28,535 bases of DNA. Origin: a virus. A program made the translations under genes and the position numbers. Positions within the stretch are counted from its first letter, which is position 1; each line of letters begins with the position of its first letter. Positions 1 to 28,535 of the stretch are shown one piece after another. Under the pieces are notes generated by a model, which was not told the DNA's origin, did no database searches, and was given only the letters and a program-made list of their open reading frames with translations. The DNA lies in UHGV virus genome UHGV-0260790; one strand, 5' to 3'.

Positions 1-138
1 TCCGAGACGAACGCGAAAGCGTCGGAAACCAGCGCAGAATCCTCAAAAACGGCTGCCGCATCGTCCGCCAGTTCGGCGGCGTCATCGGCATCATCGGCGT
101 CTGCTTCAAAAGATGAGGCGACCAGACAAGCGTCCGCA
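1..138 (+). other. Inverted copy of an internal stf coding segment (wrong strand relative to the gene)
   Basis: Plus-strand frame 1 from nt 1 reads SETNAKASETSAESSKTAAASSASSAASSASSASASKDEATRQASAA, which matches the expected continuation of lambda Stf after the minus-strand gene breaks at nt 139. Confidence 0.75.
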
Positions 139-173
139 GCGCTGGTTTCCGACGCTTTCGCGTTCGTCTCGGA
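1..173. repeat. Fold-back inverted repeat at window start: arm 1-35 is the exact reverse complement of arm 139-173, spacer 36-138; left arm touches the window edge and may extend beyond it
   Basis: Base-by-base comparison: reverse complement of 1-35 (tccgagacgaacgcgaaagcgtcggaaaccagcgc) equals 139-173; pairing fails at 36/138. Confidence 0.9.
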
Positions 174-6755: not shown

Positions 6756-6760
6756 GGGAT

Positions 6761-7459: not shown

Positions 7460-7788
7460 CAGTTCACCACCTGTTCAAACTCTGCGCTGAACTCAACACG
7501 CAGCATACTGACCCGCGACGACCATTTTGCGCAGGTCACCTTTATCTGCCGCCACTCATAAGGCGGCGTCCACAGAAAGGATTTCCAGCCCCCGTGCTCT
7601 TCCAGAAACGACTCCAGTACCGTGGCCTCCTCACGGGGGACAGAAAGCGTCACGCTGTACGTTTTCAGGTTGGCATTCAGCCCGGCAGGCGCTCGCTGGG
7701 AATAGCCATCACCAAAGCGCACCTTTCTTACAGAAGGGACCGAAGCCACATCCATACCGGGTTTCACTTTCCAGCGGAAGGTCTTCAT
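7459..7788 (-). CDS. M: Tail tip protein M
   Basis: 109 aa ORF MKTFRWKVKPGMDVASVPSVRKVRFGDGYSQRAPAGLNANLKTYSVTLS, lambda M length. Confidence 0.9.
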   Translation of the reverse strand: MKTFRWKVKPGMDVASVPSVRKVRFGDGYSQRAPAGLNANLKTYSVTLSVPREEATVLESFLEEHGGWKSFLWTPPYEWRQIKVTCAKWSSRVSMLRVEFSAEFEQVVN

Positions 7789-10346
7789 CGTCCACCTCCG
7801 GAGAACAGGCCACCATCACGCATCTGTGTCTGAATTTCATCACGGGCACCCTTGCGGGCCATGTCATACACCGCCTTCAGAGCAGCCGGACCTATCTGCC
7901 CGTTCGTGCCGTCGTTGTTAATCACCACATGGTTATTCTGCTCAAACGTCCCGGACGCCTGCGACCGACTGTCCGCCATGCTGCCCGGTGTACCGACATA
8001 ACCGCCGGTGGCATAGCCGCGCATCAGCCGGTAAAGATTCCCCACGCCAATCCGGCTGGTTGCCTCCTTCGTGAAGACAAATTCACCACGGTGAACAATC
8101 CCCGCTGGCTCATATTTGCCGCCGGTTCCCGTAAATCCTCCGGTTGCAAAATGGAATTTCGCCGCAGCGGCCTGAATGGCTGTACCGCCTGACGCGGATG
8201 CGCCGCCACCAACAGCCCCGCCAATGGCGCTGCCGATACTCCCGACAATCCCCACCATTGCCTGCTTAAGCAGAATTTCTGTCATCATGGACAGCACGGA
8301 ACGGGTGAAGCTGCGCCAGTTCTGCTCACTGCCGGTCAGCATCGCCGCCATATTCTGTGCAATACCATCAAAGGTCTGCGTGGCTGCACTTTTAACCTGC
8401 GACATACTGTCCGTGGCGCTCTCTTCCCACTCACTCCAGCCGGACTTCAGGCCTGCCATCCAGCTCCCGCGAAGCTGGTCTTCAGCCGCCCAGGTCTTTT
8501 TCTGCTCTGACATGACGTTATTCAGCGCCAGCGGATTATCGCCATACTGTTCCTTCAGGCGCTGTTCCGTGGCTTCCCGTTCTGCCTGCCGGTCAGTCAG
8601 CCCCCGGCTTTTCGCATCAATGGCGGCCCGTTTTGCCCGTTGCTGCTGTGCGAATTTATCCGCCTGCTGCGCCAGCGCGTTCAGGCGCTCCTGATACGTA
8701 ACCTTGTCGCCAAGTGCAGCCAGCTGGCGTTTGTACTCCAGCGTCTCATCTTTATGCGCCAGCAGGGATTTCTCCTGTGCAGACAGCTGGCGACGTTGCG
8801 CCGCCTCCTCCAGTACCGCGAACTGACTCTCCGCCTTCCACAAATCCCGGCGCTGCTGGCTGATTTTCTCATTTGCTCCGGCATGCTTCTCCAGCGTCCG
8901 GAGTTCAGCCTGAAGCGTCAGCAGGGCAGCATGAGCACTGTCTTCCTGACGATCGCCCGCAGACACCTTCACGCCGGACTGTTTCGGCTTTTTCAGCGTC
9001 GCTTCATAATCCTTTTTCGCCGCCGCCATCAGCGTGTTGTAATCCGCCTGCAGGATTTTCCCGTCTTTCAGTGCCTTGTTCAGTTCTTCCTGACGGGCGG
9101 TATATTTCTCCAGCGGCGTCTGCAGCCGTTCGTAAGCCTTCTGCGCCTCTTCGGTATATTTCAGCCGTGACGCTTCGGTATCGCTCTGCTGCTGCGCATT
9201 TTTGTCCTGTTGAGTCTGCTGCTCAGCCTTCTTTCGGGCGGCTTCAAGCGCAAGACGGGCCTTTTCACGATCATCCCAGTAACGCGCCCGCGCTTCATCG
9301 TTAACAAAATAATCATCCTTGCGCAGATTCCAGATGTCGTCTGCTTTCTTAAACGCAGCCTCTGCCTTAATCAGCATCTCCTGCGCGGTATCAGGACGAC
9401 CAATATCCAGCACCGCATCCCACATGGATTTGAATGCCCGCGCTGTCCTGTCTGCCCAGGTCTCCAGCGTGCCCATGTTCTCTTTCAGGCGGCGGGTCTG
9501 GTCATCAAACCCTTTCGTTGCGGCTTCGTTCGCCGCCTGCAATGCCCCGGCTTCATCGCCGGAACGCTGCAACTGAGCAACATACGCAATCTGCTCCGCC
9601 GTCACGTTATGGAACTGGCGCGCCATCGCCGTCAGCCCCGACGTCGGGTCAGTGGTCAGCTTCCCGAAGGCTTCAGCGACCTTGTCCACCTCCACACCGG
9701 ATGCAGAAGAGAAACGCGCCACACTCTGGCTGATGGACGCAATCTGAGCCTCACCGCTTACCCCCGCCTTAACCAGTGCACTGAGTGACTCGCTGGTCTG
9801 GTTAAACGTCAGCCCTGCCGCCTGCCCGGCTCTGGACAGGACCAGCATACGATCTGCCGTCAGACCCGACTGATTACCGGAAAGGACCAGCGTTTTGTTG
9901 AAATCGGACAGGGTTGAGTTACCCTGATACCAGGCATACGCCAGCGCACCGGTCGCCACCGCCAGCGAGGTGGCCCCGACCATCGGCAGGGTGATCGCAC
10001 CGGCAAGCCCCCGGAACATGGGGATCATCCCGCCGAAGGAGTCCTTAACCTGACCACCCTGTTGCAGCAGGATCAGCCACGGGCTTTGCCCGCCTGCAAG
10101 CTGCGTGGCCACGTCAGTGAACTGTGCAGGCAGCATACGCATGGCGGCTTTATACTGCCCGACGGAAATTCCCGCTTTCTGTGCAGCCAGCGCCTGTCGG
10201 CTCAGCGACTGTTCAACGACTGCCGCTGTTTTTTTCGCATCACTTTCCGTACCGGAAAAATGACGCCTGACTCTGGCCATCTGCTCGTCAAATCTGGCCG
10301 CATCCAGACTCAAATCAACGACCAGATCGCCTACCGGTTCAGCCAT
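7785..10346 (-). CDS. H: Tail tape measure protein H
   Basis: 853 aa ORF, lambda H length, MAEPVGDLVVDLSLDAARFDEQMARVRRHFSG, coiled-coil-rich middle, glycine-rich C-terminal region. Confidence 0.95.
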   Translation of the reverse strand: MAEPVGDLVVDLSLDAARFDEQMARVRRHFSGTESDAKKTAAVVEQSLSRQALAAQKAGISVGQYKAAMRMLPAQFTDVATQLAGGQSPWLILLQQGGQVKDSFGGMIPMFRGLAGAITLPMVGATSLAVATGALAYAWYQGNSTLSDFNKTLVLSGNQSGLTADRMLVLSRAGQAAGLTFNQTSESLSALVKAGVSGEAQIASISQSVARFSSASGVEVDKVAEAFGKLTTDPTSGLTAMARQFHNVTAEQIAYVAQLQRSGDEAGALQAANEAATKGFDDQTRRLKENMGTLETWADRTARAFKSMWDAVLDIGRPDTAQEMLIKAEAAFKKADDIWNLRKDDYFVNDEARARYWDDREKARLALEAARKKAEQQTQQDKNAQQQSDTEASRLKYTEEAQKAYERLQTPLEKYTARQEELNKALKDGKILQADYNTLMAAAKKDYEATLKKPKQSGVKVSAGDRQEDSAHAALLTLQAELRTLEKHAGANEKISQQRRDLWKAESQFAVLEEAAQRRQLSAQEKSLLAHKDETLEYKRQLAALGDKVTYQERLNALAQQADKFAQQQRAKRAAIDAKSRGLTDRQAEREATEQRLKEQYGDNPLALNNVMSEQKKTWAAEDQLRGSWMAGLKSGWSEWEESATDSMSQVKSAATQTFDGIAQNMAAMLTGSEQNWRSFTRSVLSMMTEILLKQAMVGIVGSIGSAIGGAVGGGASASGGTAIQAAAAKFHFATGGFTGTGGKYEPAGIVHRGEFVFTKEATSRIGVGNLYRLMRGYATGGYVGTPGSMADSRSQASGTFEQNNHVVINNDGTNGQIGPAALKAVYDMARKGARDEIQTQMRDGGLFSGGGR

Positions 10347-10789
10347 ACCGGACTCCTCCTGCGATCCCTTCTGATACTGTCATCAGCATTACGTCATCCT
10401 CCGTCATGTCCGCCACATCCGGGGAAGCGGGGATAACTTCATTCCCGTCCGGGCCAAAACGAACGCCTCCGGCAAGCCCTGCCGCTTTCTGCATCAGCAC
10501 ATCATCTTCAGGCTCTTCGTCAGCCTCGCGCCGGTTCAGCAGACTGAAATCCAGCGGATGCATATCCGGATCGCTGAAAAACAGGCTGAGCACGGTGTAC
10601 GTCAGCCCGGAAAAGTGCATATCCAGCAGAACATCATGAAAATAATGGGTACTGTAAAAGCGGTGCCAGTCGGCATACTCCGTGGATGACATCCCGGCAA
10701 GCATGGCGCGCCAGTCGGGTCGCCCCATCTCACGCGCCAGTTTCAGGGCAAAACTCAGCTCACCGTCGAACACTTTCCCGCAGAAACAG
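10339..10789 (-). CDS. T: T portion of the G-T tail assembly chaperone, expected only as a G-T fusion via programmed -1 frameshift
   Basis: Frame open downstream of G and overlapping its 3' end; translation ...LSFALKLAREMGRPDWRAMLAGMSSTEYADWHRFYSTHYFHDVLLDMHFSGLTYTVLSLFFSD matches lambda T; stop overlaps H start. Confidence 0.75.
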
Positions 10790-11177
10790 GCTCTGCAGGC
10801 CCGGCGTCCTCTGCCTGTTCAGGGGCATCATTCACCACAAACTCATACATACCGGACAGCCGGTACACCACGTTTTCAGCATGAGAAATTGCCTCTGTAG
10901 GCCAGGTGGTAAGCACTTCCTGCTCAATCTGTTTAACGGCTTCATTCATGGAAGGCATCTGCGTCTTCTGCGGATGGTTATGCCACAGGGACATCGCCAC
11001 CACACAAGCACCGGTTCTGATGGCGTCTTCCACAGTAAACTTCCGGTTGCTGTCTGACTCCGCCTGTTCTGCCTGCCGTTTCATCAGGGCGAGATGCTCA
11101 ATACGCTGCAGGGCTGACAGTTCAGAAAGCGTGACGGTCACACCGTTATGTTCAAATGATTCGGTTTTCAGGAACAT
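10755..11177 (-). CDS. G: Tail assembly chaperone G
   Basis: 140 aa ORF MFLKTESFEHNGVTVTLSELSALQRIEHLALMKRQAEQAESDSNRKFTVEDAIRTGA, lambda G length. Confidence 0.9.
   Translation of the reverse strand: MFLKTESFEHNGVTVTLSELSALQRIEHLALMKRQAEQAESDSNRKFTVEDAIRTGACVVAMSLWHNHPQKTQMPSMNEAVKQIEQEVLTTWPTEAISHAENVVYRLSGMYEFVVNDAPEQAEDAGPAEPVSAGKCSTVS
10783..10789 (-). other. Slippery heptamer GGGAAAG for the G to G-T -1 frameshift
   Basis: Minus-strand GGGAAAG near the 3' end of G, in the G/T frame overlap; same heptamer as lambda. Confidence 0.7.
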
Positions 11178-11192
11178 CGCTGACTCTCCGGA

Positions 11193-11933
11193 TTAACTGG
11201 CGGTGACGTTGATTTCTGCAACCGCAGCAAGTTCACCATTACCGGATACGACCGGAATGTTGACCTTGCCTGCAGCAACACCTTTCACGGTGATGGTCAT
11301 ACCACTGACCGACACGGTGGCTTTTGTTTTATCCGCTGACACCGCACGGAAGCTCTTGTCGGTTGCGCCTTCCGGCTGGAATGCCACGGTCAGCGTGGTG
11401 CTCTGCCCTTTCACCACCGAGGTGCTGGCAGGCATCACGGTCATGCCGGTTGCCGCTGTTACCGTGCTGCGATCTTCTGCCATCGACGGACGTCCCACAT
11501 TGGTGACTTTCACCGTGCGGGTGATCACTTCCTTCGCCGTCACCGCCTTACCGATACTGCTGACCCAGCCACGGAACACATCGACCGTGCCGTTCGGGAA
11601 GCGGATTTTATAGGCACGGGTATCGCCTTCATTAAACCACGCCAGCAGCGCCTGCTGCCCCTGCTCTCCGGGCATCCACGCCAGCGTGAAGCTGGTATCT
11701 CCGGCAGATTTCTGCCCCTGCCCGGTCGCAGTCCAGTCTGCATCTTCATCATCGAGATAGCTGTCGTCATAGGACTCAGCGGTCAGTTCGCCGGGCGTCA
11801 GGTCTTTAACTTTTGCCAGACGCGACCAGTCAACGTCTGAAAGCGGATTCGCATAAGGGTCACCGCTCCCCTTATAAACCCACAGGGTGGTCCCGGCACC
11901 TTTCACCGGCATTGTAGGATTTGGTACAGGCAT
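11193..11933 (-). CDS. V: Major tail tube protein V
   Basis: 246 aa from [45 protein letters not shown]; the ORF-track start at 11963 is an upstream extension; C-terminal Ig-like domain present. Confidence 0.9.
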
Positions 11934-11940
11934 AGCGTCC

Positions 11941-12336
11941 TCACATTTCATAGGTAATGACATAAGTCAGATCGGCTGAACTCCACAGGCCCGCATCATC
12001 GTCGCGCCGGTAGTCATAGCCGCTGGCCACCATACTGGTGATCAAATCTGACAGTGCCGGGATATCGCTCATCACCGGATAAATCCGGGACTCCATCCAC
12101 GCATCCAGCTCTGAATCCGGCACCTGAGCAGGCAGGAAAACTTCGATATGCAGCTCCGCCTGCCAGGTATCGCTGTCCAGCTCTTCGCCCGTGTATTCAG
12201 CGCCGGTGAGATAAACGGCAACTGCCGGAAAATCCGCCTCATCAAAAACAGCGGGGCGACCATCAAAAAACGTCGCCCCGGTGTCATGCTTCTCCAGTGC
12301 ATCCAGTACGGCTGCACGGAGTTCAGTATGTTTCAT
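11941..12336 (-). CDS. U: Tail terminator protein U
   Basis: 131 aa [53 protein letters not shown], lambda U length; ATGA overlap with Z stop. Confidence 0.9.
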
Positions 12337-13089
12337 CGCTTTATTACCATCCTCAGTTGATGCTGCAGCGCATAGCCCAGCTCTTTCGGAAGACGTTCAC
12401 GCCGTATCCGCTCAATATTTTGTTTAAACGCCGTGGTCAGCGGCACCGCCATCGGGATTTTCACCACATCAATGGGGTAACGGTTTTTCCCGGTCCTTTC
12501 GCGCCGCAGGCGTCGTAAAAAGGGGCAGCGTTCATCCCTGAAAGGTGGCGGCAGCGTGCTTGTGGTGGGTAACCGTCGTATTCCCGGCGCGTTTATTCAG
12601 CAACTGAAAAATGGCCGGTGGCATGTCATGCAGCGTGTGGCCGGGAAAAACCGTTACCCCATCGATGTGGTGAAAATCCCGATGGCGGTGCCGCTGACCA
12701 CGGCGTTTAAACAAAATATTGAGCGGATAAATACGACGGTTACCCACCACAAGCACGCTGCCGCCACCTTTCAGGGATGAACGCTGCCCCTTTTTACGAC
12801 GCCTGCGGCGCGAAAGGACAACCCGCGCATTACCCAGCTTGATTACGGGCAAATCCCCCCGGTTAACTTTGATTCTGGCCTGCGGATTTTTGACCGTGGC
12901 CCTTTTCAGCCTGGCCCTTTCCTTTACCAGTTTCCGGCGTACCTTTGTCTCACGGGCAACCTGTGACGCCGACTGCGATATCGCGGATGAAGCAACGCGG
13001 TTAATGGCCATTGCGGCGGCACCAGGCACCGCCGTTTTGCTGATACGGCAGAGGTTTTCAATGGCCTGCTCAAGACCTTTTATGGCCAT
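12333..13089 (-). pseudogene. Z: Tail completion protein Z disrupted by a 178-nt fold-back (inverted duplication) insertion; predicted product has 120 native residues then out-of-frame sequence, stop at 12532
   Basis: Minus ORF 12532-13089 reads MAIKGLEQAIENLCRISKTAVPGAAAM...SVLVVGNRRI then junk YPLNILFKRRGQ...; the next Z residues (PGAFIQQLKNGRWHVMQRVAGKNRYPIDVVKIPMAVPLTTAFKQNIERI) are on the PLUS strand at 12583-12729; the Z C-terminus (NRYPID...[24 protein letters not shown]) resumes on the minus strand at 12493-12336. Joining rc(12730-13089) + 12583-12640 + rc(12333-12493) gives exactly 579 nt, 192 codons plus stop, the length of lambda Z. Confidence 0.85.
12405..12819. repeat. Composite fold-back inside Z: arm P 12405-12493 pairs with P' 12641-12729 (89 nt, 1 mismatch); arm Q 12493-12582 pairs with Q' 12730-12819 (90 nt, exact); unique core 12583-12640. 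Layout P-Q-core-P'-Q'
   Basis: Manual reverse-complement comparison of the listed coordinates; arms share a single nucleotide (12493) at the junction. Confidence 0.9.
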
Positions 13090-13100
13090 ACATCCCCCTT

Positions 13101-13454
13101 TCAGCGGCGACGGTTAACGGCAGGCGGTACGCCCCGCCCAAGCCAGAGATGACAGCTTCCACCATCATCCGGCGAAACCCGGTCTATCCAGAAGTTTTCC
13201 TCACCGATGGTCAGCGTGTCTCCACGCCGCAGCTGCCGCACATCATCAGTCCGGACAAACAGGGACGGGCTGGAGCCTTCAACGCGCACGCCCTGTCCGG
13301 CATAGCTGATATTTTCAGGGTCATCAAAAACACCACGTATTACTGCGCCGGACTGCTCACCGGATGTCATGGTGGCTGACGTTCCCATGTACCCGCGTAT
13401 CGTTTCATCGGCGCGGGCAATGGCAGCATCGAACAGGTTATCGGAATCAGCCAC
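13101..13454 (-). CDS. FII: Head-tail joining (tail attachment) protein FII
   Basis: 117 aa ORF MADSDNLFDAAIARADETIRGYMGTSATMTSGEQSGAVIRGVFDDPENISYAGQGVRVEG, lambda FII length. Confidence 0.9.
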   Translation of the reverse strand: MADSDNLFDAAIARADETIRGYMGTSATMTSGEQSGAVIRGVFDDPENISYAGQGVRVEGSSPSLFVRTDDVRQLRRGDTLTIGEENFWIDRVSPDDGGSCHLWLGRGVPPAVNRRR

Positions 13455-13465
13455 AGCGCCTCCCG

Positions 13466-13861
13466 TTATTGCATTCTGGCCAGGCCATGTTCTGTCATTT
13501 CGGCTGCCACACCGGCAGAGACACGGAACGCCGTTCCCGGCAGCACAAATGCCACAGGCTCATCCCGCGTGGCGTGAAGTGCATCGGTATGCAGCGTCAC
13601 CAGTGCCACAACCGTGACCAGAGCAGCCGTATCAGTCACGGTATCCGTCTGTGCTGATACCACCTCATTTTCATGTCCGGTCAGCGCATTTTCCGGGCTG
13701 ACAGACGAGTCCTGACCGGCTCCGTCATCCGTGTCATCAAGCTCCTCTTCCAGCTCTGCCACACGGAGCGCCAGTTCTTCTTTCGTCCCCGTCAGGCTGA
13801 CATCACGGTTCAGTTGCTCACCCAGCGACCGGAGACGGGCAATCAGTTCATCTTTCGTCAT
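13466..13861 (-). CDS. FI: DNA packaging protein FI
   Basis: 131 aa from MTKDELIARLRSLGEQLNRDVSLTGTKEELALRVAELEEELDD; the ORF-track start at 13900 is an upstream extension. Confidence 0.85.
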   Translation of the reverse strand: MTKDELIARLRSLGEQLNRDVSLTGTKEELALRVAELEEELDDTDDGAGQDSSVSPENALTGHENEVVSAQTDTVTDTAALVTVVALVTLHTDALHATRDEPVAFVLPGTAFRVSAGVAAEMTEHGLARMQ

Positions 13862-13902
13862 GGACTCCTCCACAGAGAGAAAATGGCCCCTAAGGGCCAT
13901 GA

Positions 13903-14928
13903 TTACGCCAGTTGAACGGACACGAACTCATCAGGATCAGCCAGCAGCATCAGCGGTGCTGACTGAATCATGGTGAACTCTCGCGCCGGATCGCCGGATG
14001 TCTTCCAGTTTTTCGGATAACGGGGAGACGCATTAATACCCTCACTCAATGCATCCGCATCCTGAATACAGCCATAGGTGCGCAGACCGCGTGCATGAGT
14101 GTTACCCAGCACCATCGTGTTGTCCGGCAGGAAGTTCTTTTTGACGCCGTTTTCCACGTACTGTCCGGAATACACGACGATGGCCACATCGCCATACATT
14201 CCCTTATAAGACACCGCTTTGCCCAGGTCTTTTACCGCTGTCTCCAGTTCGGAATGAGAGCCGCGACGGGTATCCAGCTTCTCCCTGACGGCTTTGAAGG
14301 AACGGAACAGCGCCCAGCCTTTCGGGTCAAACACGATGATATTCACCACGCCGCTGGCGTTCAGCGCGTAGGCTTCGATATCGTCGGTCGGGTCATACGT
14401 GGACTTGTCACGCTTGCTCCACTCCGTGCCGCCGGACTGCGTGATGTTGTTCGCCGCACTGCGGCCCATATCCACCTCAACCGGATCGAAGGCTTCACCG
14501 GTCATGGTGTATTTGCCCTTGAGCACGGCAGAAACTGCCTGCATCTCTTCGACCTGAGCAATGGCCAGCTCTTCGTCACGCATGTTCTGCATGATGATGC
14601 GACGGCGGCGGTAAGCCGGGTCCGCCAGATTCTGCGGTTCTTCATCCGGCAGGCGACGCAGGGTCATCTGCGGATTCACTTCATGCTTGGGTTTGACATA
14701 TCCCGGCGTAAATTCAGAGGTGGAGCCGCCACGGGAACGGATAACCTCACCGGAAACAATCGGCGAAACGTACAGCGCCATGTTTACCAGTCCCGGAATT
14801 TGTGAGAGATAGACTTTCTCCGTAGTGAAGGGATAGCTCTCACGGAAAAAGAGACGCAGAAACAGCGGATCAAACTTAAATTTCTGCTCATTTGCCGCCA
14901 GCAGCTGGGCGGTTGTGTACATCGACAT
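13903..14928 (-). CDS. E: Major capsid protein E
   Basis: 341 aa from MSMYTTAQLLAANEQKFKFDPLFLRLFFRESYPFTTEKVYLSQIPGLVNMALYVSPIVSGEVIRSRGG; lambda E length. Confidence 0.95.
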   Translation of the reverse strand: MSMYTTAQLLAANEQKFKFDPLFLRLFFRESYPFTTEKVYLSQIPGLVNMALYVSPIVSGEVIRSRGGSTSEFTPGYVKPKHEVNPQMTLRRLPDEEPQNLADPAYRRRRIIMQNMRDEELAIAQVEEMQAVSAVLKGKYTMTGEAFDPVEVDMGRSAANNITQSGGTEWSKRDKSTYDPTDDIEAYALNASGVVNIIVFDPKGWALFRSFKAVREKLDTRRGSHSELETAVKDLGKAVSYKGMYGDVAIVVYSGQYVENGVKKNFLPDNTMVLGNTHARGLRTYGCIQDADALSEGINASPRYPKNWKTSGDPAREFTMIQSAPLMLLADPDEFVSVQLA

Positions 14929-14983
14929 AAAAAAATCCCGTAAAAAAAGCCGCACAGGCGGCCTTTAGTGATGAAGGGTAAAG

Positions 14984-15316
14984 TTAAACGATGCTGATTG
15001 CCGTTCCGGCAAACGCGGTCCGTTTTTTCGTCTCGTCGCTGGCAGCCTCCGGCCAGAGCACATCCTCATAACGGAACGTGCCGGACTTGTAGAACGTCAG
15101 CGTGGTGCTGGTCTGGTCAGCATCAACCGCCAGAATGCCAACGGCAGTACCGTCGGTGGTGCCATCCCACGCAACCAGCTTACGGGTGGAGGTGTCCAGC
15201 ATCAGCGGGGTCATTGCAGGCGCTTTCGCACTCAATCCGCCGGGCGCGGTTGCCGTATGTGCCGGGTCACTGTTGCCCAGCGGCTGGTAATGGGTAAAGG
15301 TTTCTTTGCTCGTCAT
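14984..15316 (-). CDS. D: Capsid decoration protein D
   Basis: 110 aa from [56 protein letters not shown]; lambda D length. Confidence 0.9.
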
Positions 15317-15325
15317 AAACATCCC

Positions 15326-15931
15326 TTACACTGGTGTGTTCAGCAAATCGTTAACGGCATCAGATGCCGGGTTACCTGCAGCCAGTGGTGCCGGTGCCCC
15401 CTGCATCAGACGATCCAGCGCAGTGTCACTGCGCGCCTGTGCACTCTGTGGTGCAGCTGCCAGAATGCGGCGGGCCGTTTCCACGGTCATACCGGGGGTT
15501 TCGGCCAGCACACGTGCCTGTTCTTCGCGTCCGTGAGCTTCCTCACAGTTGAGGATCCCCATAATGCGGCTGTTTTCTGCCGCAACCGCAGCGGTGATCT
15601 GCGCGTTCACGTCCGGCTGCGCCGCGCTGGCGTTTTCGCCCTCCGTCGCTTGCACCACGTCAGTAACGTCAGCCTGCGAAGCAGTGGCTGAAACAGTTGT
15701 TGATTGAGTCTCTTTGGTCATTCGCCCTCCTGAGAGACGGGATTTACGTGCATCCAGTGCATCACGCATAACGGTGATCGCATCGGTGCTGTTGACAAGT
15801 TCATCAGCCAGTCCGGCATCAATGGCCTCCTGACCGCTGTACACTGCAGCCTCGGTATCCAGCACAGCCTGCACGGACAGGCCGGTATATGCCGACACCT
15901 TCTGCGCAAACATCCGGCGGGTTGCATCCAT
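15326..15931 (-). CDS. nu3: Scaffolding protein Nu3, nested in-frame in the 3' third of C
   Basis: Internal Met (MDATRRMFAQKVSAYTGLSVQAVLD...) gives 201 aa sharing the C stop codon, as known for lambda C/Nu3. Confidence 0.7.
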   Translation of the reverse strand: MDATRRMFAQKVSAYTGLSVQAVLDTEAAVYSGQEAIDAGLADELVNSTDAITVMRDALDARKSRLSGGRMTKETQSTTVSATASQADVTDVVQATEGENASAAQPDVNAQITAAVAAENSRIMGILNCEEAHGREEQARVLAETPGMTVETARRILAAAPQSAQARSDTALDRLMQGAPAPLAAGNPASDAVNDLLNTPV

Positions 15932-16625
15932 CCGGGACTGCAGTGTCTCCCGGACATCACCCGGTAGATGGCTGTAGGGGTTGCCATCCACCTTATGGCT
16001 GCCGCTGTAAATCAGCGTGATTTCCACGCCCTGTTTCTCCAGCGCAGCGCCGTAATTACTGTGAGCCATCATGACGCCGATGGAGCCTGTCCGGGCGGTC
16101 TGCGTGACCAGACGCCGGGAGGCGGCGCTGGCAAGCAGCTGACCTGCACTGCAGTTCATGTCGTTGGCCAGCGCCCATACCGGCTTTATGTCACGCACAC
16201 GGGCGATGATGTCAGCACAGTCAAATGCTCCCGCCACCATCCCGCCCGGTGTGTCCATATCGAGCAGAATGCCGTCCACCATCGGATCGCTGGCAGCCTG
16301 TTGCAGACGAGCGATAATGCCGTTGTAACCGGTCATTCCCGAATACGGCTGCAGCGCCCGCGTCCGGCTGACCAGCGTACCGGACACCGGCAGCACGGCG
16401 ATGCCGTTCATGACCTGATAACTGCGGGCCTGTCGTGGTCCGTCATCATCACCGGATAACGCCAGCGCCGCGGGTGCCTCTCCGGCAGTCAGGCTGTCGC
16501 CGGATACTGCATCCGTCAGGCGACTGATCCCAAGCTGGCCTGCAAGCGCACAAAAGAAAACCCGCGCATAGGCGGGTTCAAGCATCAGCGGCTCATTAAA
16601 AGCCATGCTGGCAATATGCGGGAGA

Positions 16626-16645
<20 letters not shown>
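15326..16645 (-). CDS. C: Capsid maturation protease / scaffold C (ClpP/SppA-like), GTG start
   Basis: 439 aa from (V)TAELRNLPHIASMAFNEPLMLEPAYARVFFCALAGQLGIS; the ORF-track start at 16780 runs 45 codons upstream into B; overlaps B 3' end by 20 nt as in lambda. Confidence 0.9.
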
Positions 16646-20326
<3,681 letters not shown>

Positions 20327-20352
<26 letters not shown>

Positions 20353-20872
20353 TCAGCAACCCCGGTATCAGTTCATCCAGCGCGGCTGCTTTGTTCATGG
20401 CTTTGATGATATCCCGTTTCAGGAAATCAACATGTCGGTTTTCCAGTTCCGGAAAACGCCGCTGCACCGACAGGGGGATCCCGTCGAGAATACTGGCAAT
20501 TTCACCTGCGATCCGCGACAGCACGAAAGTACAGAATGCGGTTTCCACCACTTCAGCGGAGTCTCTGGCATTTTTCAGCTCCTGTGCGTCGGCCTGCGCA
20601 CGCGTAAGTCGATGGCGTTCGTACTCAATAGTCCCTGGCTGGAGATCTGTCTCGCTGGCCTGCCGCAGTTCTTCAACTTCCCGGCGCAGCTTTTCGTTCT
20701 CAATTTCAGCATCCCTTTCGGCATACCATTTTATGACGGCGGCAGAGTCATAAAGCACCTCATTACCCTTGCCACCGCCTCGCAGAACGGGCATTCCCTG
20801 TTCCTGCCAGTTCTGAATGGTACGGATACTCGCACCGAAAATGTCAGCCAGCTGCTTTTTGTTGACTTCCAT
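20327..20872 (-). CDS. nu1: Terminase small subunit Nu1
   Basis: 181 aa ORF MEVNKKQLADIFGASIRTIQNWQEQGMPVLRGGGKGNEVLYDSAAVIKWYAERDAEIENEKLRREVEELRQ; 3' end overlaps A. Confidence 0.95.
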
Positions 20873-21049
20873 TGTTCATTCCACGGACAAAAACAGAGAA
20901 AGGAAACGACAGAGGCCAAAAAGCTCGCTTTCAGCACCTGTCGTTTCCTTTCTTTTCAGAGGGTATTTTAAATAAAAACATTAAGTTATGACGAAGAAGA
21001 ACGGAAACGCCTTAAACCGGAAAATTTTCATAAATAGCGAAAACCCGCG
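20873..21049. other. cosB terminase-binding region (R and IHF sites) between nu1 start and cosN
   Basis: Reverse complement of this stretch matches the remembered lambda left end (…TTTTCCGGTTTAAGGCGTTTCCGTTCTTCTTCGTCATAACTTAATG…) with inverted GGAAACGACAG / CTGTCGTTTCC R-site motifs. Confidence 0.6.
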
Positions 21050-21061
21050 AGGTCGCCGCCC
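21050..21061. other. cosN, 12-nt cohesive end site (AGGTCGCCGCCC on plus strand = GGGCGGCGACCT on the phage top strand)
   Basis: Exact lambda cohesive-end sequence, positioned ~190 nt upstream of nu1 as in lambda. Confidence 0.8.
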
Positions 21062-21260
21062 CGTAACCTGTCGGATCGCCGGAAAGGACCCGCAAAATGA
21101 TAATAATTATCATCTACATGTCACAACGTGCATCTACGCCATCAAACCACGTCAAATAATCAATTATGACGCAGGTATCGTATTAATTGATCTGCATCAA
21201 CTTAACGTAAAAACAACTTCAGACAATACAAATCAGCGACACTGAATACGGGGCAACCTC

Positions 21261-21455
21261 ATGTCAACGAAGAACAGAACCCGCAGAACAACAACCCGCA
21301 ACATCCGCTTTCCTAACCAAATGATTGAACAAATTAACATCGCTCTTGAGCAAAAAGGGTCCGGGAATTTCTCAGCCTGGGTCATTGAAGCCTGCCGTCG
21401 GAGACTAACGTCAGAAAAGAGAGCATATACATCAATCCAAAGTGATGATGGATGA
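21261..21455 (+). CDS. Hypothetical small protein, possible ribbon-helix-helix DNA-binding fold
   Basis: 64 aa ORF MSTKNRTRRTTTRNIRFPNQMIEQINIALEQKGSGNFSAWVIEACRRRLTSEKRAYTSIQSDDG; basic N-terminus followed by a pattern resembling CopG/Arc RHH proteins; weak RBS; may be non-coding. Confidence 0.3.
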   Translation: MSTKNRTRRTTTRNIRFPNQMIEQINIALEQKGSGNFSAWVIEACRRRLTSEKRAYTSIQSDDG

Positions 21456-21815
21456 ACATCCCGGTTTCTTCCACCATCGCACCGGAAAAGCGACTATGAG
21501 GGTAACCCTGCGTCTGTCAGCACAGTAAAACCCGGTGTGCATCGTTTTTGATTATTCCCGCACACTCACGCAGAAGGAATTCCCCGTCGGGCTACGGTCA
21601 TGGTTAATGCGGGAATACGGCGACGATACAGCGCAGCTAAAAGGGTAATGGACAGATAGAGCGGTTTATTTCATTCCACAGGATTCTGAGTGCCCCCCCT
21701 CCTCCAATAGGCTGAGCATCCACCTATATAGTTTTAATTTTCATCAATCCATTTAACTATCGTTTAATTGTTGTCACATAGGATTCTGCCGTTTTTAACA
21801 ATGCAGGATAATAAG

Positions 21816-22109
21816 ATGAAAAAAATGTTGTTTTCTGCCGCTCTGGCAATGCTTATTACAGGATGTGCTCAACAGACGTTTACTGTTGGAAACAAACCGA
21901 CAGCAGTAACACCAAAGGAAACCATCACCCATCACTTCTTCGTTTCGGGAATTGGACAGGAGAAAACTGTTGATGCAGCCAAAATTTGTGGCGGCGCAGA
22001 AAATGTTGTTAAAACAGAAACCCAGCAAACATTCGTAAATGGATTGCTCGGTTTTATTACTTTAGGCATTTATACTCCGCTGGAAGCGCGTGTGTATTGC
22101 TCACAATAA
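21816..22109 (+). CDS. bor: Bor lipoprotein (serum resistance-associated)
   Basis: 97 aa from MKKMLFSAALAMLITGCAQQTFTVGNKPTAVTPKETITHHFFVSGIGQEKTV with lipobox LITGC; opposite strand to Rz as in lambda. Confidence 0.9.
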   Translation: MKKMLFSAALAMLITGCAQQTFTVGNKPTAVTPKETITHHFFVSGIGQEKTVDAAKICGGAENVVKTETQQTFVNGLLGFITLGIYTPLEARVYCSQ

Positions 22110-22140
22110 TTGCATGAGTTGCCCATCGATATGGGCAGCT

Positions 22141-22602
22141 CTATCTGCACTGCTCATTAATATACTTCTGGGTTCCTTCCAGTTGTTTTTGCATAGTGAT
22201 CAGCCTCTCTCTGAGGGTGAAATAATCCTGTTCAGCGGTGTCTGCCAGTCGGGGGGAGGCTGCATTATCCACGCCGGAGGCGGTGGTGGCTTCACGCACT
22301 GACTGACAGACTGCTTTGATGTGCAACCGACGACGACCAGCGGCAACATCATCACGCAGAGCATCATTTTCAGCTTTCGCATCAGCTAACTCCTTCGTGT
22401 ATTTTGCATCGAGCGCAGCAACATCACGCTGACGCATCTGCATGTCAGTAATTGCCGCGTTCGCCAGCTTCAGTTCTTTGGCATTTTTGTCGCGCTGGGC
22501 TTTATAGGTAATGGCGTTATCACGGTAATGATTAACAGCCCATGACAGGCAGACGATGATGCAGATAACCAGAGCGGAGATAATCGCGGTTACTCTGTTC
22601 AT
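22141..22602 (-). CDS. Rz: Spanin inner-membrane subunit Rz
   Basis: 153 aa from [60 protein letters not shown]; ATGA overlap with R stop. Confidence 0.9.
22200..22382 (-). CDS. Rz1: Spanin outer-membrane lipoprotein subunit Rz1, embedded in Rz in the +1 frame
   Basis: 60 aa [63 protein letters not shown] with lipobox and proline-rich region, wholly inside Rz. Confidence 0.85.
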
Positions 22603-23096
22603 TGCTGACCCCACAAACAGATTTCACGCTCAATCTCACGACGAGTCATGAGACCTTTCCATTGCTTACCGCCAGCATATGTCCAGCGACGTAACTGATC
22701 ACATGCGCCTTTGATATCGCCCTGGTTTATTTTGCGAAGAAGCGTCGATGTTCTGAAATTGCCAGCACCCACGTTGTAAACGAATGAGTAAAGAGCGCCG
22801 CGCGTTGTTTCCGGTATATCGACTTCGATGTATGGGTTAATTTGTCTGGCGACAGTGGCAAGGTCTTTATTCAAGAGTGCTTTGCATTCTGCTTTGGTAT
22901 ACGTTTTACCGAGCATGATGTCTTTTCCTGTATGCCCGTGACATACGGTCCATACACCAACAATATCTTTGTATGGTATGTAGCTGACACCTTCCAGACC
23001 ATCGTTACCACTTGGGCCAGTGATTAACACTGATGCTATAGCAATTGCTCCGCCACCAATAGCAGCAGCAACGGCTTTTCGTAATGATGGAGGCAT
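22599..23096 (-). CDS. R: SAR endolysin (T4-lysozyme-like muramidase with N-terminal signal-anchor-release domain), phage 21 / DLP12 RrrD type
   Basis: 165 aa [78 protein letters not shown]; glycine/alanine-rich SAR segment then lysozyme catalytic region. Confidence 0.9.
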
Positions 23097-23311
23097 TATT
23101 CACCTCTCGCAGCCTTGCGCTTATCTTCTTTAATCTTGAAATAAAGGTTTGTCAGGTACGTCAGCAGGCCAAATACCAGGCTACCCAGCACACCTATTGC
23201 TGCCCACTGTGAGGGCGTGACTTTATCGAGCAGCTGTAAAAACCAGTAACCGGCACTACCTGCTGAGATGCCATAGGCGACACCCGTTGTTAACTTATCC
23301 ATGGATTTCAT
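23096..23311 (-). CDS. S: Pinholin S (phage 21 S21 type) with dual-start motif MKSM (antiholin S71 at 23311, holin S68 at 23302)
   Basis: 71 aa from [71 protein letters not shown]; two TMDs, charged C-terminus; the ORF-track start at 23356 is an upstream extension. Confidence 0.9.
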
Positions 23312-23617
23312 AACCCCACCTCGCAGACAAAGCGGGTGTAAATTGAGGGAATACAACGTATCGCAAAAAAGCAGAAACGTAACAGACTCGGAGTCAGTGA
23401 ATAACTCAGGTATTGAGTTATCAGCTAATATCGAGACTCAAAAAATGGAAAAACCAGCTCGACGGCGGGTTTAAGCTGTGTGACGAAGTAACCACTCTTA
23501 ACAGCATAACCAATTTTTTACGTACGTAAACCACTGAATGATATTTATGAGAATGCTACCGAGTGTTCAAAACACCACCACAAATACATAAGAAAACCTC
23601 AACAAATAACCAATAAA

Positions 23618-23947
23618 TAATTTCCGGCGTTATTTTTAGTTAATTTAAATTAAACCATCGAATTATAGACCCCCCATATTTTAGTTTCTCATTTAATTTG
23701 TGAAGTAGATCTCTATTTTTATCTGAACTTTTTCTATCGAAACCTATTTATGGCTCTTATTTGAACAAAAATAAACCTATTAGCTAATTTATATTAATGG
23801 CTGTTATTTATGGGGGGTCTATAATTCGATGGTTTAATTTAAATTAACTAAAAATAACGCCGGAAATTAGAGCCATAAATAGGTTTCGATAGAAAAAGTT
23901 CAGATAAAAATAGAGATCTACTTCACAAATTAAATGAGAAACTAAAA
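23618..23947. repeat. Composite fold-back in the S-to-porin intergenic region: X 23618-23678 pairs with X' 23809-23869 (61 nt exact); Y 23679-23757 pairs with Y' 23869-23947 (79 nt exact); unique core 23758-23808. Layout X-Y-core-X'-Y'
   Basis: Manual reverse-complement comparison; AT-rich; arms share one nucleotide (23869) at the junction, same topology as the Z fold-back. Confidence 0.9.
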
Positions 23948-24038
23948 CTTACATCTTGAAATAATCACATTGATTAGATGAATATTTATCGCGCAGTGAC
24001 ATCATTTTTTAATAATAGTTCAAAAAAAAGGGCTCACG

Positions 24039-25121
24039 ATGAAAAAATTAACAGTGGCAATTTCTGCTGTAGCTGCATCAGTACTGATGGCGATGTCTGC
24101 TCAGGCAGCTGAAATTTATAATAAAGACAGTAACAAGCTGGATCTGTACGGGAAAGTTAATGCTAAGCACTACTTCTCCTCTAATGATGCAGATGATGGT
24201 GATACTACTTATGCCCGTCTTGGCTTCAAAGGTGAAACCCAAATCAACGATCAACTGACTGGTTTCGGTCAGTGGGAATATGAATTCAAAGGCAACCGCG
24301 CTGAATCTCAAGGTTCCTCCAAAGATAAAACCCGTCTTGCCTTCGCTGGCCTGAAATTCGGTGACTACGGCTCCATCGATTACGGCCGTAACTACGGTGT
24401 AGCATACGACATCGGTGCGTGGACTGACGTCCTGCCAGAATTCGGTGGTGACACTTGGACTCAAACAGATGTGTTCATGACTGGTCGCACCACTGGTGTT
24501 GCAACTTATCGTAACAACGACTTCTTTGGTCTGGTTGATGGTCTGAACTTTGCTGCTCAGTATCAGGGTAAAAATGACCGCACTGACGTAACTGAAGCTA
24601 ATGGTGATGGTTTCGGTTTCTCCACTACTTATGAGTATGAAGGATTCGGTGTAGGTGCAACCTATGCTAAATCTGATCGCACTAATAATCAGGTTATCTA
24701 CGGTAACAACGGTCTGAATGCTTCTGGTCAAAATGCTGAAGTATGGGCAGCTGGTCTGAAATATGATGCGAACAACATCTATCTGGCCACCACCTATTCT
24801 GAAACCCAGAACATGACTGTTTTTGGTAATAACCATATTGCCAACAAAGCACAAAACTTCGAAGCTGTTGCACAATATCAGTTCGACTTCGGCCTGCGTC
24901 CATCCGTTGCTTACCTGCATTCTAAAGGAAAAGACTTGGGTGTTTGGGGTGATCAGGACCTGGTTGAATATGTTGATGTAGGTGCAACCTATTACTTCAA
25001 CAAAAATATGTCCACTTTTGTTGACTACAAAATCAACCTGATTGATAAGAGCGATTTCACGAAAGCATCTGGCGTTGCTACCGATGATATCGTTGCTGTA
25101 GGTATGGTTTACCAGTTCTAA
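24039..25121 (+). CDS. nmpC: Outer membrane porin, OmpC/OmpF/NmpC family, prophage-encoded moron
   Basis: 360 aa ORF with signal peptide [23 protein letters not shown], mature N-terminus [18 protein letters not shown]-terminal ...VAVGMVYQF; AAGGG RBS; opposite strand to Q/S/R as for nmpC in DLP12. Confidence 0.9.
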
Positions 25122-25172
25122 TTTGATTACTAAAAGATATGTTGTGGGAGGCTTTGCCTCCCCAACATATAA

Positions 25173-25197
25173 GTGGCTCCCTCAAGCCACTTCCTTT
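25173..25197 (+). terminator. Possible intrinsic terminator after the porin gene
   Basis: Hairpin GTGGCT-CCCTCA-AGCCAC followed by TTCCTTT; the same hairpin on the minus strand is followed by UUAUAUGUU, so it could also act on the late transcript. Confidence 0.35.
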
Positions 25198-25309
25198 AGA
25201 AGCACAACCTTGCTTCTAACTATACAAACCTTCTGTTATATATTACCCTTTATTTTTGGGGGCGTTTCAACGCCCCATTTTTAATAACTTTTAGTAAATA
25301 ATTGGCGTA
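25198..25309 (-). promoter_or_regulatory. Candidate late promoter / Q-utilisation region downstream of Q
   Basis: Position directly after the Q stop, where PR' and qut lie in lambdoid phages; minus strand has TTGAAA about 17-20 nt upstream of TAATAT-like hexamers plus GC-rich hairpins (GGGGCG-TTGAAA-CGCCCC); no exact consensus identified. Confidence 0.25.
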
Positions 25310-25693
25310 TTAATTAGAGTTATTAACAACGATATCCATCTCTAACCGGATATCTAATGCCATTAACATCCCTTCAATTATGCCCTCAGCCTTTTGTAAC
25401 CTTTTCCCGATATAACCATCAGAGCAGCAATGCTTACCTGCCAGTGACATGAATGTCATACCGACTACATAATAATCTACTAATAAATCGTGCAAATCGC
25501 TGTTGTTCTTTTTCAGACGGGCCATGCACCCGCAAATGATCATCGCGTCATCGTCACAACATTGCGGGCGAGATTTTACTTTTGAAGGAATTAATCCCTT
25601 AAAACCGGCGGCAATGGACGACCAGGTCACATCTTCATGATTATTAGCCGCCCACGCTCCCCAACGCTCAAGAACCATCTGAATATCACGCAT
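25310..25693 (-). CDS. quuD: Late gene antiterminator Q, phage 82 / DLP12 QuuD type
   Basis: 127 aa from [60 protein letters not shown] (Cys-rich zinc-binding region); GGAG RBS 8 nt upstream of the ATG at 25693; the ORF-track start at 25708 is a TTG. Confidence 0.85.
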
Positions 25694-25778
25694 CAACTTA
25701 CTCCACAAAAATCAGACCAGAACGCCAATTACAAGCAAAAATCAATAAAACAGTATTAGTTGATTGTTATCTCTGACT

Positions 25779-25916
25779 TCATACTCCTGCTCCTGTCAGG
25801 GTTTTGGCGTAATTCTTCAGTATTCGGTAATCGGTCAAAACAGAACCGGGGAAACGATATAAGCGCAGACGCCCCCAGCGGTGGCGAAGAAGTTCTGCTA
25901 TATTAAACTCAAACAT
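25779..25916 (-). CDS. ylcG: Small nin-region protein YlcG-like
   Basis: 45 aa [48 protein letters not shown] found by manual translation; start overlaps rusA stop (TGATG); below the 60 aa cutoff of the ORF track. Confidence 0.7.
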   Translation of the reverse strand: MFEFNIAELLRHRWGRLRLYRFPGSVLTDYRILKNYAKTLTGAGV

Positions 25917-26278
25917 CATTCATTCCCCATTTCGGTGATGGTCAGTTCCAGCCTCCCACCTTTGGTAACAGGCATCTTCACAACGCGGTAATCAACGACC
26001 TGAGCATCATCCAGCCAGAAACCTGCTTTAGTGAGTGCGTCAAAAGCGGCTTTTTGCAGATTATCCAGGTCACGGCGACGGCGATCCGGCATGTGGCACT
26101 CAATGCGGATTTTCACAGGCATAGCCAGGCCGATATCCAGCATTGCGCTTTTAATGATTCGGGCGACGTTATCGCGGTATGCCTGCCCCTCTGCACTGAC
26201 GTGCGTGCGCCCGCGATTATGGCGGTAATAGCGATTATTGCTCGGAGGCCAGGGTAATGTGATACTGTAGGTATTCAC
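25916..26278 (-). CDS. rusA: Holliday junction resolvase RusA
   Basis: 120 aa [96 protein letters not shown]. Confidence 0.9.
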
Positions 26279-26565
26279 GCCTTAATAACCCCCTCTTTCA
26301 GCCAGATAACCTGTGTTCTCGCCATACCTTCCAGCGCGCATTCTTTTGCATATGCAGCATCGACAAAATGTGTGCGGCGGTCGATTTCGTCGTGGCAGGC
26401 AGAACATGCAATGGTGGCAATCAGGTCTGGCGGTTTGATACCGGTACCGCACAATCCAGCCAGCCGGATATGTGCCAGTACAGACGTTTCAGAATTGCCA
26501 TTACATACGCCAGGGATTCTTACCTGGCATTCCCGACCATGCGCTGCTTTTCTCAAATCAGCCAT
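26275..26565 (-). CDS. ybcO: YbcO-like nin-region protein (DUF1364, putative nuclease)
   Basis: 96 aa from [64 protein letters not shown]; start overlaps ninE 3' end; the ORF-track start at 26604 is a 13-codon extension. Confidence 0.8.
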
Positions 26566-26728
26566 GACTCCTCCTTGCTGCCAGTCGCAACCATTTTTTA
26601 TCAACCAAGCTGGCGGTATATCCGAGCAGTGTTGGTATTTCGGATGGCTTCAGCTCAGGTTTACGCTTACGACGATTTGGTACTCTGTAGATGTGTCCGT
26701 TCATGACACGAATAAGCGGTGTAGCCAT
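26558..26728 (-). CDS. ninE: NinE-like small protein
   Basis: 56 aa [59 protein letters not shown] found by manual translation; TAATG overlap with ybcN stop. Confidence 0.7.
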   Translation of the reverse strand: MATPLIRVMNGHIYRVPNRRKRKPELKPSEIPTLLGYTASLVDKKWLRLAARRSHG

Positions 26729-27183
26729 TACGCCTCCTGCTTGTCGCGCAGCAGCTGAAACTCGCAGCTCTGTGGAATAGTCAGGTGGCAGCCAATATTC
26801 ATCGCCCAGGCTTCAACCTTACACAGGAAGACATACATCTCTCCGGTATCAAGATCGGAGGTATGGCGTAACGACTGGATAGTAGTGATTTCGCCGGTTA
26901 CGACATCAACCAGGTCCTTGGTTTCATAACCGAGGTATGTGTGTTTGAGAGCATCTTTTACCCATGCTGCGGTAGCGAACGATTTCCCCCTGCTGATGAG
27001 GTATTCACTGATTTCGCTGTACCACATGTGGCTGAGTGCATTCTGGGAAAGACTGCGTTTCTCACGCCACGGTTTAAGCACCATGCGAAAGCATTTGCCC
27101 TCCTCCAGATAAGGCTGGATCTGCCGACCGATAGCGGTGAAGTTACCGCGATGTAATTTGATGCCATCTTGTGGGAGATTCAC
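26728..27183 (-). CDS. ybcN: YbcN-like nin-region protein
   Basis: 151 aa ORF (V/M)[61 protein letters not shown]; GTG start with GGAGGTG RBS 5 nt upstream. Confidence 0.75.
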
Positions 27184-27370
27184 GCTTCACCTCCGCAGAG
27201 GTCAAACGCTGGATACAATATATCGCAGGTGCATTTCTGCATCTGTGGAGGGAGAAGAGAGTTTGGATTGTGTGTGCGCATAAACGTCCCCGTTTAGCGC
27301 AGAAGTCACCGGAGTTGTTCAGGCTCCGATGACATGATTATGGCGAGTTGATTATCGCAAATCAAAGGTT

Positions 27371-27727
27371 TTAATTGTGCTTTATTCCTTCAAGCGTTGC
27401 CTTCATACCAACCAAAGAAATGTTTAGCTCTCCAACTTTCTCAGGGCTATATAATTCAGAATGAAGCCAATATTCTGATTTATCTAAACATCTTTTAGCC
27501 AGCTCTCGATCAAAGTCTACGACTTGGGAAGACGCTTCATACCAAAGCCTATAAAGTTTTTCTTCTTCGTTTGGGTTATTAGGCTCACCACGTTTTAATT
27601 TTTCAGTATATAAAATTGTTGAATAAATCGCAGGAGTTAATCCAGTGATTGCCCTCTGCCGCAGATCGGATTTGTTTGTTATCCACCCCAACAGACGATC
27701 TCCCATCCATGTGATAATTGTATCCAT
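27371..27727 (-). CDS. Hypothetical protein, AT-rich orphan ORF (possible moron)
   Basis: 118 aa ORF MDTIITWMGDRLLGWITNKSDLRQRAITGLTPAIYSTILYTEKLKRGEPNNPNEEEKLYRLWYEASSQVVDFDRELAKRCLDKSEYWLHSELYSPEKVGELNISLVGMKATLEGIKHN; GAAGGG RBS 8 nt upstream of ATG; visibly lower GC than flanking genes; no family recognised. Confidence 0.6.
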   Translation of the reverse strand: MDTIITWMGDRLLGWITNKSDLRQRAITGLTPAIYSTILYTEKLKRGEPNNPNEEEKLYRLWYEASSQVVDFDRELAKRCLDKSEYWLHSELYSPEKVGELNISLVGMKATLEGIKHN

Positions 27728-28146
27728 GCTTTAGCCCTTCTTAGTAAATAGTGTGTAGGGCGACTGAAGGACCGAGTTTATGCTTTTTCGCATTGCTTTC
27801 AGTTAGTACACCGGTATCGCACCGGAAACAATCCTACGGCAAATTGGTTGTCTGACCTCTCGGTTTTTCGTGCATTAACCGATACCCACTACAGTCTCGG
27901 CGAAAGCTGCACACCCCCAGGGTGTACTGGTAGCACTCGGCACAGCCTAGCACGCCACTTTCTTCTCACTATCCAGTCTAATTTTATCCCCTAGTCAGAC
28001 ACTCAGATGTAGTGCTCCGCAGCGGCATGCGGGGGAATACAAAAACTCGGACAAAATTGGGCCCTCCTTTTTGAATCACTCGCGGGGATGTAGTTATTAA
28101 TACATGGAAAAAGATCTGTTTTCAAATCCAACATTATATGGTTTCA

Positions 28147-28535
28147 ATACCACGGGGTGGCTATGTGTTTCTCATTGTTAATTGGAATCTACTGTAATCG
28201 ATCCGAACGTAAATGCGGCAAAACTCGACTCCACTTATCATCCTGCCACGGCCGGAATTTTACATGTGCCGTCGGCACAGTTGGTGTGGCGGCCTCAGTC
28301 CGGAACAATTTGAAAACAAGAACCTCGCTTAGGCCTGTGTCCATATTACGTGGGTAGGATCAAATATCCCCAGATACTCAATAAGGCACAGGCAATCCTT
28401 GCCAGAGAAACGGCACATGTAAAATTCCGGCCGTGGCAGGATGATAAGTGGAGTCGAGTTTTGCCGCATTTACGTTCGGATCGATTACAGTAGATTCCAA
28501 TTAACAATGAGAAACACATAGCCACCCCGTGGTAT
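28147..28535. repeat. Perfect 126-nt inverted repeat: arm 28147-28272 pairs with arm 28410-28535, spacer 28273-28409; right arm ends exactly at the window edge and may extend beyond it
   Basis: Reverse complement of 28410-28535 equals 28147-28272 at every position checked; pairing fails at 28273/28409. Confidence 0.9.

Follow-up and report, generated by a model that had tools for sequence, protein, structure and literature searches.

Gene context of the holin–porin spacer

The window, by which we mean the whole 28,535-nt stretch of UHGV virus genome UHGV-0260790 analyzed here, is a lambdoid prophage region with genes in the order found in annotated relatives: quuD, porin, essD, rrrD, rzpD and iss/bor. 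Lambdoid phages and prophages that carry the native lc/nmpC spacer (PA-2, J02580; DLP12-like prophages) have the same succession of Q, opposite-strand porin, holin, lysozyme, Rz and bor/iss, and share with the window the flanks of the spacer and the annotated CRP-site sequences. The exact porin protein is very widespread, with 2942 blocks of a public collection containing it. Next to both genes that bound the spacer, native sequence is retained, over 322 nt beside the holin gene and over the 170 nt that precede the porin ATG. The coordinates of the genes, repeat units and strand junctions are collected in Table 1.

Table 1. Genes, repeat units and strand junctions in the window. Jump is the displacement along the parental sequence at a strand change; overlap is the number of bases shared at the joint.
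Feature	Position	Strand	Jump (nt)	Overlap (nt)	Remarks
Left terminus	1–173				Inverted 138-nt block 1–138, forward from 139; arms 1–35 and 139–173 (35 nt)
Left end J2	138/139		103	3	
Z event	12405–12818				X 12405–12493; inverted 236-nt block 12494–12729; Y′ 12730–12818
Z J1	12493/12494		147	1	
Z J2	12729/12730		147	0	
Rz	22141–22602	-			
Lysozyme	22599–23096	-			
Holin, essD/S-like	23096–23311	-			71 aa; essD in homologous loci; untouched by the event
X	23618–23678	+			61-nt forward copy in native position, final stretch of forward block 12730–23678; 100% identical and collinear with parent-lineage locus L034; exact inverted partner 23809–23869
Holin–porin J1	23678/23679		130	0	Forward strand at parental a2 to opposite strand; GACCCCCCATA / TTTTAGTTTC
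Inverted block	23679–23869	-			Whole of parental segment R (191 bp; X + core + Y′), reverse complement
Y	23679–23756	-			Part of inverted block
CRP-site duplicate in Y	23696–23716	-			Inverted; made by the event
Core	23757–23808	-			Part of inverted block
X′	23809–23869	-			Part of inverted block
Holin–porin J2	23869/23870		113	1 (A)	End of inverted block at parental a1 to forward strand; CCGGAAATTA / GAGCCATAAA
Y′	23870–23947	+			78-nt forward copy in native position, opening stretch of forward block 23870–28272 that runs into the porin gene; collinear with L034; exact reverse complement of 23679–23756
CRP-site sequence in Y′	23910–23930	+			Native copy; identical to the site upstream of lc of PA-2 (J02580, 1363–1383)
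Porin, lc/nmpC/OmpC-like	24039–25121	+			360 aa; intact; between Q and holin; untouched by the event
Antiterminator Q	25310–25693	-			
Right terminus	28147–28535				Forward block to 28272; inverted block of at least 263 nt at 28273–28535; arms of 126 nt
Right end J1	28272/28273		137	0	

Anatomy of the fold-back

Positions 23618–23947 consist of five consecutive units, X (61 nt), Y (78 nt), core (52 nt), X′ (61 nt) and Y′ (78 nt), the inverted arms of which are exact. The repeat finder returned two inverted pairs: 23618–23678 with 23809–23869 (61 nt, 100% complementary), and 23679–23762 with 23864–23947 (84 nt, one mismatch). The exact portion of the Y/Y′ pair is 78 nt long, or 79 nt with an A that both sides of the joint share; the core occurs in a single copy. 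The X-Y-core-X′-Y′ order is no simple palindrome, and chance cannot account for exact inverted matches of this length (61 and 78 nt) in 28.5 kb. The stretch has a G+C content of 27%, compared with 54% for the window. The initial annotation had described this layout with exact inverted arms, and we find it just so; of its two arm lengths the 61 nt stands, and the 79 nt is reached only with the shared A. It had further taken the 330 nt for the whole intergenic stretch. This has to be revised, as the 330 nt are just the rearranged portion of a spacer of about 680–730 nt that runs from the holin start to the porin ATG (24039).

The 330-nt stretch can be written as X, followed by the reverse complement of a 191-bp segment, R, followed by Y′. 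The inverted block is 100% identical, in the opposite orientation, to loci L034, L035, L036, L007, L012, L014 and L015, and the exact 191-mer R is present in each of them.

The parental form and its distribution

The holin–porin spacer of E. coli ML35 measures 543 nt, compared with 682 nt in the window, and reads X + rc(core) + rc(Y), which is R. Relative to this parental form the window has an additional 139 nt in the spacer, all of which are duplicates of adjacent local sequence. Every parental k-mer persists in the window, in inverted orientation. When the event is undone on paper, the resulting 543-nt spacer is base-identical in six independent public assemblies (ML35, L012, L015, L034, L035 and L036). 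The native lc/nmpC lambdoid spacer likewise holds the 191-bp segment once, oriented oppositely to the inverted block of the window, and lacks long inverted repeats.

Prevalence was scored at a query coverage of at least 80% in complete E. coli genomes (n = 5426). The reconstructed form reaches this coverage in 2415 of the 5426 genomes, with best matches at 100% identity; the window's arrangement reaches it in none of the 3170 matching E. coli records from the same genome set, and is found in none of 36 matching phage records. A 41-mer across J1 was not found in the viral_contigs, genome_contigs or metagenome_contigs collections. The ancestral sequence that had been deduced from the window's own letters, X + rc(core) + Y′ with a length of 191 bp, thus exists as an exact sequence in ML35 and other records, and the reading of the 330 nt as a rearrangement or artefact of that form agrees with how common the form is. 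The comparison with homologous prophages, which the initial annotation had proposed, returned no homologue with the X-Y-core-X′-Y′ arrangement, whose presence there would have marked a conserved native structure.

Sister assemblies of the same prophage lineage

Contigs of the window's own lineage were recovered from independent sources through look-ups of the exact J and portal proteins. The portal protein is lineage-specific and gave the decisive loci; a look-up with the terminase was too unspecific (16136 blocks, with unrelated genomes returned). Five loci match the forward blocks of the window at 99.9–100%: L034, an ENA metagenome scaffold; L035 and L038, NCBI drafts; L036, an ENA MEGAHIT-style contig; and L037, a Logan contig. 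All five lack the event and have the parental form at both internal sites. The closest comparison is provided by L034, which has zero mismatches to window positions 6448–12493, 12730–23678 and 23870–28272 (~21.4 kb), and onto which positions 12494–12729 and 23679–23869 map in inverted orientation. The parental form is also present at Z in L016, L017, L021 and L023, and at the left end in L016–L022.

A single base of the window differs from the lineage: an A to G change at 12663, inside the inverted Z block, where 19 of 19 loci that contain the region have A. The inverted blocks thus contain one difference in 828 nt, versus none in about 27.7 kb of forward blocks. The window is thus the prophage lineage plus the rearrangements, and nothing else. 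Several draft E. coli genomes at NCBI contain the lineage (forward blocks at 99.9–100%), as do two metagenome assemblies from ENA and Logan SRR31115963 (L016, L034–L038), so that the phage behind the window is common and well represented.

Four events of one geometry

The window contains four events of the same geometry in 28.5 kb, located at both termini, in the tail gene Z and in the holin–porin spacer. The likeness between the spacer and the Z event had been pointed out in the initial annotation and is confirmed here; the two window ends turn out to be of the same kind. Alignment to E. coli A34 and the sister contigs resolves the window into three forward blocks, of 12.4, 10.9 and 4.4 kb in window order, that alternate with four inverted ones, of at least 138 nt (left end), 236 nt (Z), 191 nt (spacer) and at least 263 nt (right end). 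Across the four events the strand jumps cover 103–148 nt, and the inverted blocks are about 140–260 nt long.

In the Z event, the X, Y, core, X′ and Y′ units measure 89, 89, 58, 89 and 89 nt, respectively, which adds 178 nt and breaks the reading frame of this conserved tail gene. Z is intact (192 aa) in every relative, and an exact-sequence look-up with the chimeric 185-aa product returned no record. The terminal events have the same kind of junction and are cut by the sequence ends. Because both window termini lie inside inverted blocks, the window looks like a whole contig or molecule that ends in such events.

At the right end, the jump was derived via L034 and related alignments. The EC931 locus (L039) was considered as the parent of this end and rejected, as it is non-collinear there: the first 90 nt of the inverted block (28273–28362) correspond to one end of an IS3 copy that lies at another place in L039, at about 608–697. 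The right-hand inverted block starts 90 nt within the IS3 end, and the right-hand forward block stops 47 nt before the IS3 insertion, which in this lineage interrupts a P22AR-C-domain gene (L034). The short-read assembly L034 also terminates at the IS3, and public short-read contigs of the lineage stop there.

Five of the six junctions have an overlap of 0–1 nt, and the one at the left end has 3 nt. These values are about what chance would give, which argues against primed template switching and for blunt or computational joining. We also considered a single k-mer size as the common cause of overlaps and blocks. The 126-nt right arm suggests k = 127, but neither the 35-nt left arm nor the 90-nt IS3 segment agrees with this value, and the idea was rejected.

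A probable technical strand-switch product

From the geometry of the events, their privacy to this sequence, their blunt joints and their multiplicity, all of which are read directly from the alignments, we infer a technical origin: the 330-nt fold-back is very probably a chimeric molecule or a mis-oriented fragment join, and no native element. The sequence follows the normal strand through the end of X, makes a homology-free jump to the opposite strand 130 nt ahead, runs inverted through the whole 191-bp segment, and returns by a second such jump to the normal strand 113 nt on, from where it continues into the porin gene. An equivalent description is a 191-nt fragment that spans a 52-nt interval and has been set in reverse between two forward blocks, with its overlaps of 61 and 78 nt left untrimmed. 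In its general form, a read-sized fragment over an interval of 52–58 nt would be reversed and placed with untrimmed overlaps. The step at fault may have been the formation of chimeric molecules during library preparation or amplification, or the mis-orientation of short fragments in assembly or scaffolding. We know of no specific assembler documented to yield exactly this pattern.

Recurrence of the pattern at Z and at both ends points to a property of how the sequence was produced, and not of the phage. An origin outside biology, with the possibility of post-assembly editing of the record counted in, is judged highly likely, because (i) the events are private, multiple, uniform, heedless of coding sequence and blunt-jointed, and (ii) both termini lie inside events and the sole difference from the lineage falls in an inverted block. 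Less weight is given to the terminal position of two of the events, which is weak evidence since real inverted repeats can also end short-read contigs.

The best-described wet-lab source of inverted chimeras between nearby sites is multiple displacement amplification (MDA) with phi29 polymerase, in which the inverted class is the commonest, the process is intramolecular, junction overlaps are typically 5–8 nt, and the preferred distances are ~80 and 250–300 nt (PMC9984789). The window shares with these chimeras the short-range join to the opposite strand of the same locus, over 103–147 nt (130 and 113 nt at this event). The junctions differ, with overlaps of 0 and 1 nt in the spacer and of 1, 0, 0 and 3 nt elsewhere, and we do not assign the event to phi29 MDA because the expected 5–8 nt are missing. 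The "inverted repeat" read artefact of nanopore ligation libraries was also considered and does not match, as its definition calls for fragments of >500 bp.

Comparison with genuine template switching

The main alternative is that the fold-back is a genuine and very recent mutation of this prophage, produced by a replication template switch of type 3-1-4-2 in the four-point model (Loytynoja & Goldman 2017, PMC5453318). In that case the nascent strand would have left its template at the end of X, copied 191 nt of the complement and re-entered at the start of Y′, and the same burst would account for the Z event and for both terminal ones. The topology is identical to that of type 3-1-4-2. Positions 23679–23869 are the reverse complement of the adjacent parental 191 bp at 100%, the parental coordinates are ordered as the type demands (a1 = 16993 < a2 = 17053 < b1 = 17106 < b2 = 17183), and the switch order 3<1<4<2 produces two inverted repeats around an inverted spacer, as seen here. 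The same structure is known among human variants as dupINVdup, an inversion with flanking duplications (Collins et al. 2017, PMC5338099), in which ABC becomes A C′B′A′ C with the middle inverted and both flanks duplicated in inverted orientation; in the spacer, X and Y′ each occur twice, and the core once and inverted. True replication errors can therefore produce this topology. A real mutation is also consistent with every inserted base being a copy of local sequence and with the zero divergence of the arms, which fits a recent event, and the broken Z gene would be tolerable for a prophage.

The scale, the number and the distribution of the events speak against it. The copied fragments are 191–263 nt long, whereas the local events described for the four-point model are short, and type 3-1-4-2 makes up 1% of human–chimpanzee template-switch events (PMC5453318). 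The dupINVdup variants were resolved at about 5 kb, with one of 5.1 Mb (PMC5338099), compared with the 330 nt of the present event in the spacer of a prophage. For mutation in vivo, it would be very unlikely that 28.5 kb acquired four independent complex events while 27.7 kb of forward sequence stayed without a point change relative to the sister assemblies. The overlap of 0–1 nt at five of the six junctions and the position of both sequence ends inside such events are further difficulties. A heritable variant would be backed by reads or by independent sequences, and no such event is found in the same-lineage assemblies, the 5426 complete genomes or the three contig collections; the four events are private to one sequence, to which the sister assemblies are otherwise identical. 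Taken together, we consider a genuine mutation unlikely, and regard the event as probably technical where the type 3-1-4-2 model describes real mutations.

Should all four events nevertheless be real, they would represent a burst of homology-independent double strand switches in one prophage or replicating phage genome, each of which copied ~200 nt of the opposite strand. We hold this to be more doubtful still. If true, it would be a small-scale bacterial counterpart of chromoanasynthesis and would show that template switching in a bacterial prophage can be clustered and independent of homology, a finding of moderate interest for research into mutation mechanisms.

Other explanations

A record altered after assembly, by manual or scripted editing or by the simulation of structural variants, would account for the blunt joints, the exact copies and the uniform geometry. 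It would also be consistent with a sequence that no searched collection contains and a lineage whose unaltered form turns up many times. The base change in one inverted block is unlike a simple copy-and-flip, however, and termini inside events fit the ends of contigs or molecules better. We rate editing as very improbable; in practice it is indistinguishable from an assembly mis-join, and it is counted within the non-biological class.

A native, conserved element of the lambdoid late region, serving between the porin and the lysis genes as, for instance, a terminator, processing site or regulatory hairpin, might be suspected from the predicted stability of the late-strand RNA (-142.5 kcal/mol, z = -16.8) and from the location of the stretch in a region that the late transcript must cross. 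The predicted fold is a trivial outcome of the duplicated arms, however; the arrangement is absent from the E. coli and phage records searched (0 of 3170 and 0 of 36) while the 191-bp form is present in 2415 genomes, and sister assemblies with identical flanks do not have it. A scan of positions 23300–24100 found no promoter- or terminator-like sites. The probability of a native element is accordingly negligible.

It is likewise extremely unlikely that the stretch represents a small mobile-element insertion (MITE-like, or an IS remnant) or a segment inverted under recombinase control, as the inverted repeats of 61 and 78 nt, the 139 extra nt relative to relatives and the recombinase genes further along in related prophages (ybcK) might suggest: all 139 extra nt are local copies with no foreign DNA and no target-site duplication, the repeats interleave instead of flanking one segment, the parental form has no inverted repeats on which a recombinase could act, and the rearranged form is found in 0 of 3170 matching E. 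coli records while the parental form is common.

Implications of the arrangement

As a biological feature the fold-back is most likely not real. The effects on porin expression and late read-through that the initial annotation had considered are moot if the event is an artefact. If the arrangement existed in DNA, it would have no designed function and would add a second, inverted copy of a CRP site; the late transcript would also acquire a 78-bp hairpin upstream of the lysis genes. Only one long RNA stem could form at a time because the repeat pairs cross, and the 78-bp Y:Y′ stem dominates the predicted RNA fold. Such an arrangement would be expected to be unstable: an inversion between X and X′ would turn the Y′ copies into direct repeats, and a deletion between these would return the spacer to its parental form.

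Taken at face value, the window gives the impression of a large regulatory hairpin and a duplicated CRP site beside a phage porin and, in the sister event, of an inactivated tail gene. Both impressions vanish against otherwise identical assemblies, and the chief value of the case lies in quality control. The signature is recognizable: a forward block, a read-sized inverted block that overlaps both neighbors, and a further forward block, with blunt joints between them. Recognizing it in phage and prophage contigs can avert the reporting of false structural variants, pseudogenes, inverted repeats and "inverted terminal repeats".

Further features of the window

Several features of the window are separate from the strand switches. 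The sequences of both CRP-binding sites of PA-2 lc (J02580) are kept exactly upstream of the porin, at 23476–23496 and 23910–23930, and this conservation suggests that the porin is under catabolite regulation of the kind described for lc.

In E. coli ML35, the porin homologue is split by the IS5-family element ISKpn26. The nmpC gene of K-12 is likewise split by an IS5-family element.

Finally, just upstream of the Nu1 gene, positions 20897–20953 form an imperfect inverted repeat with 25-nt arms (84% complementary), a 7-nt spacer and CGTTTCCTTTCT-like motifs, a repeat that we take to resemble the terminase-binding R sites of cosB.
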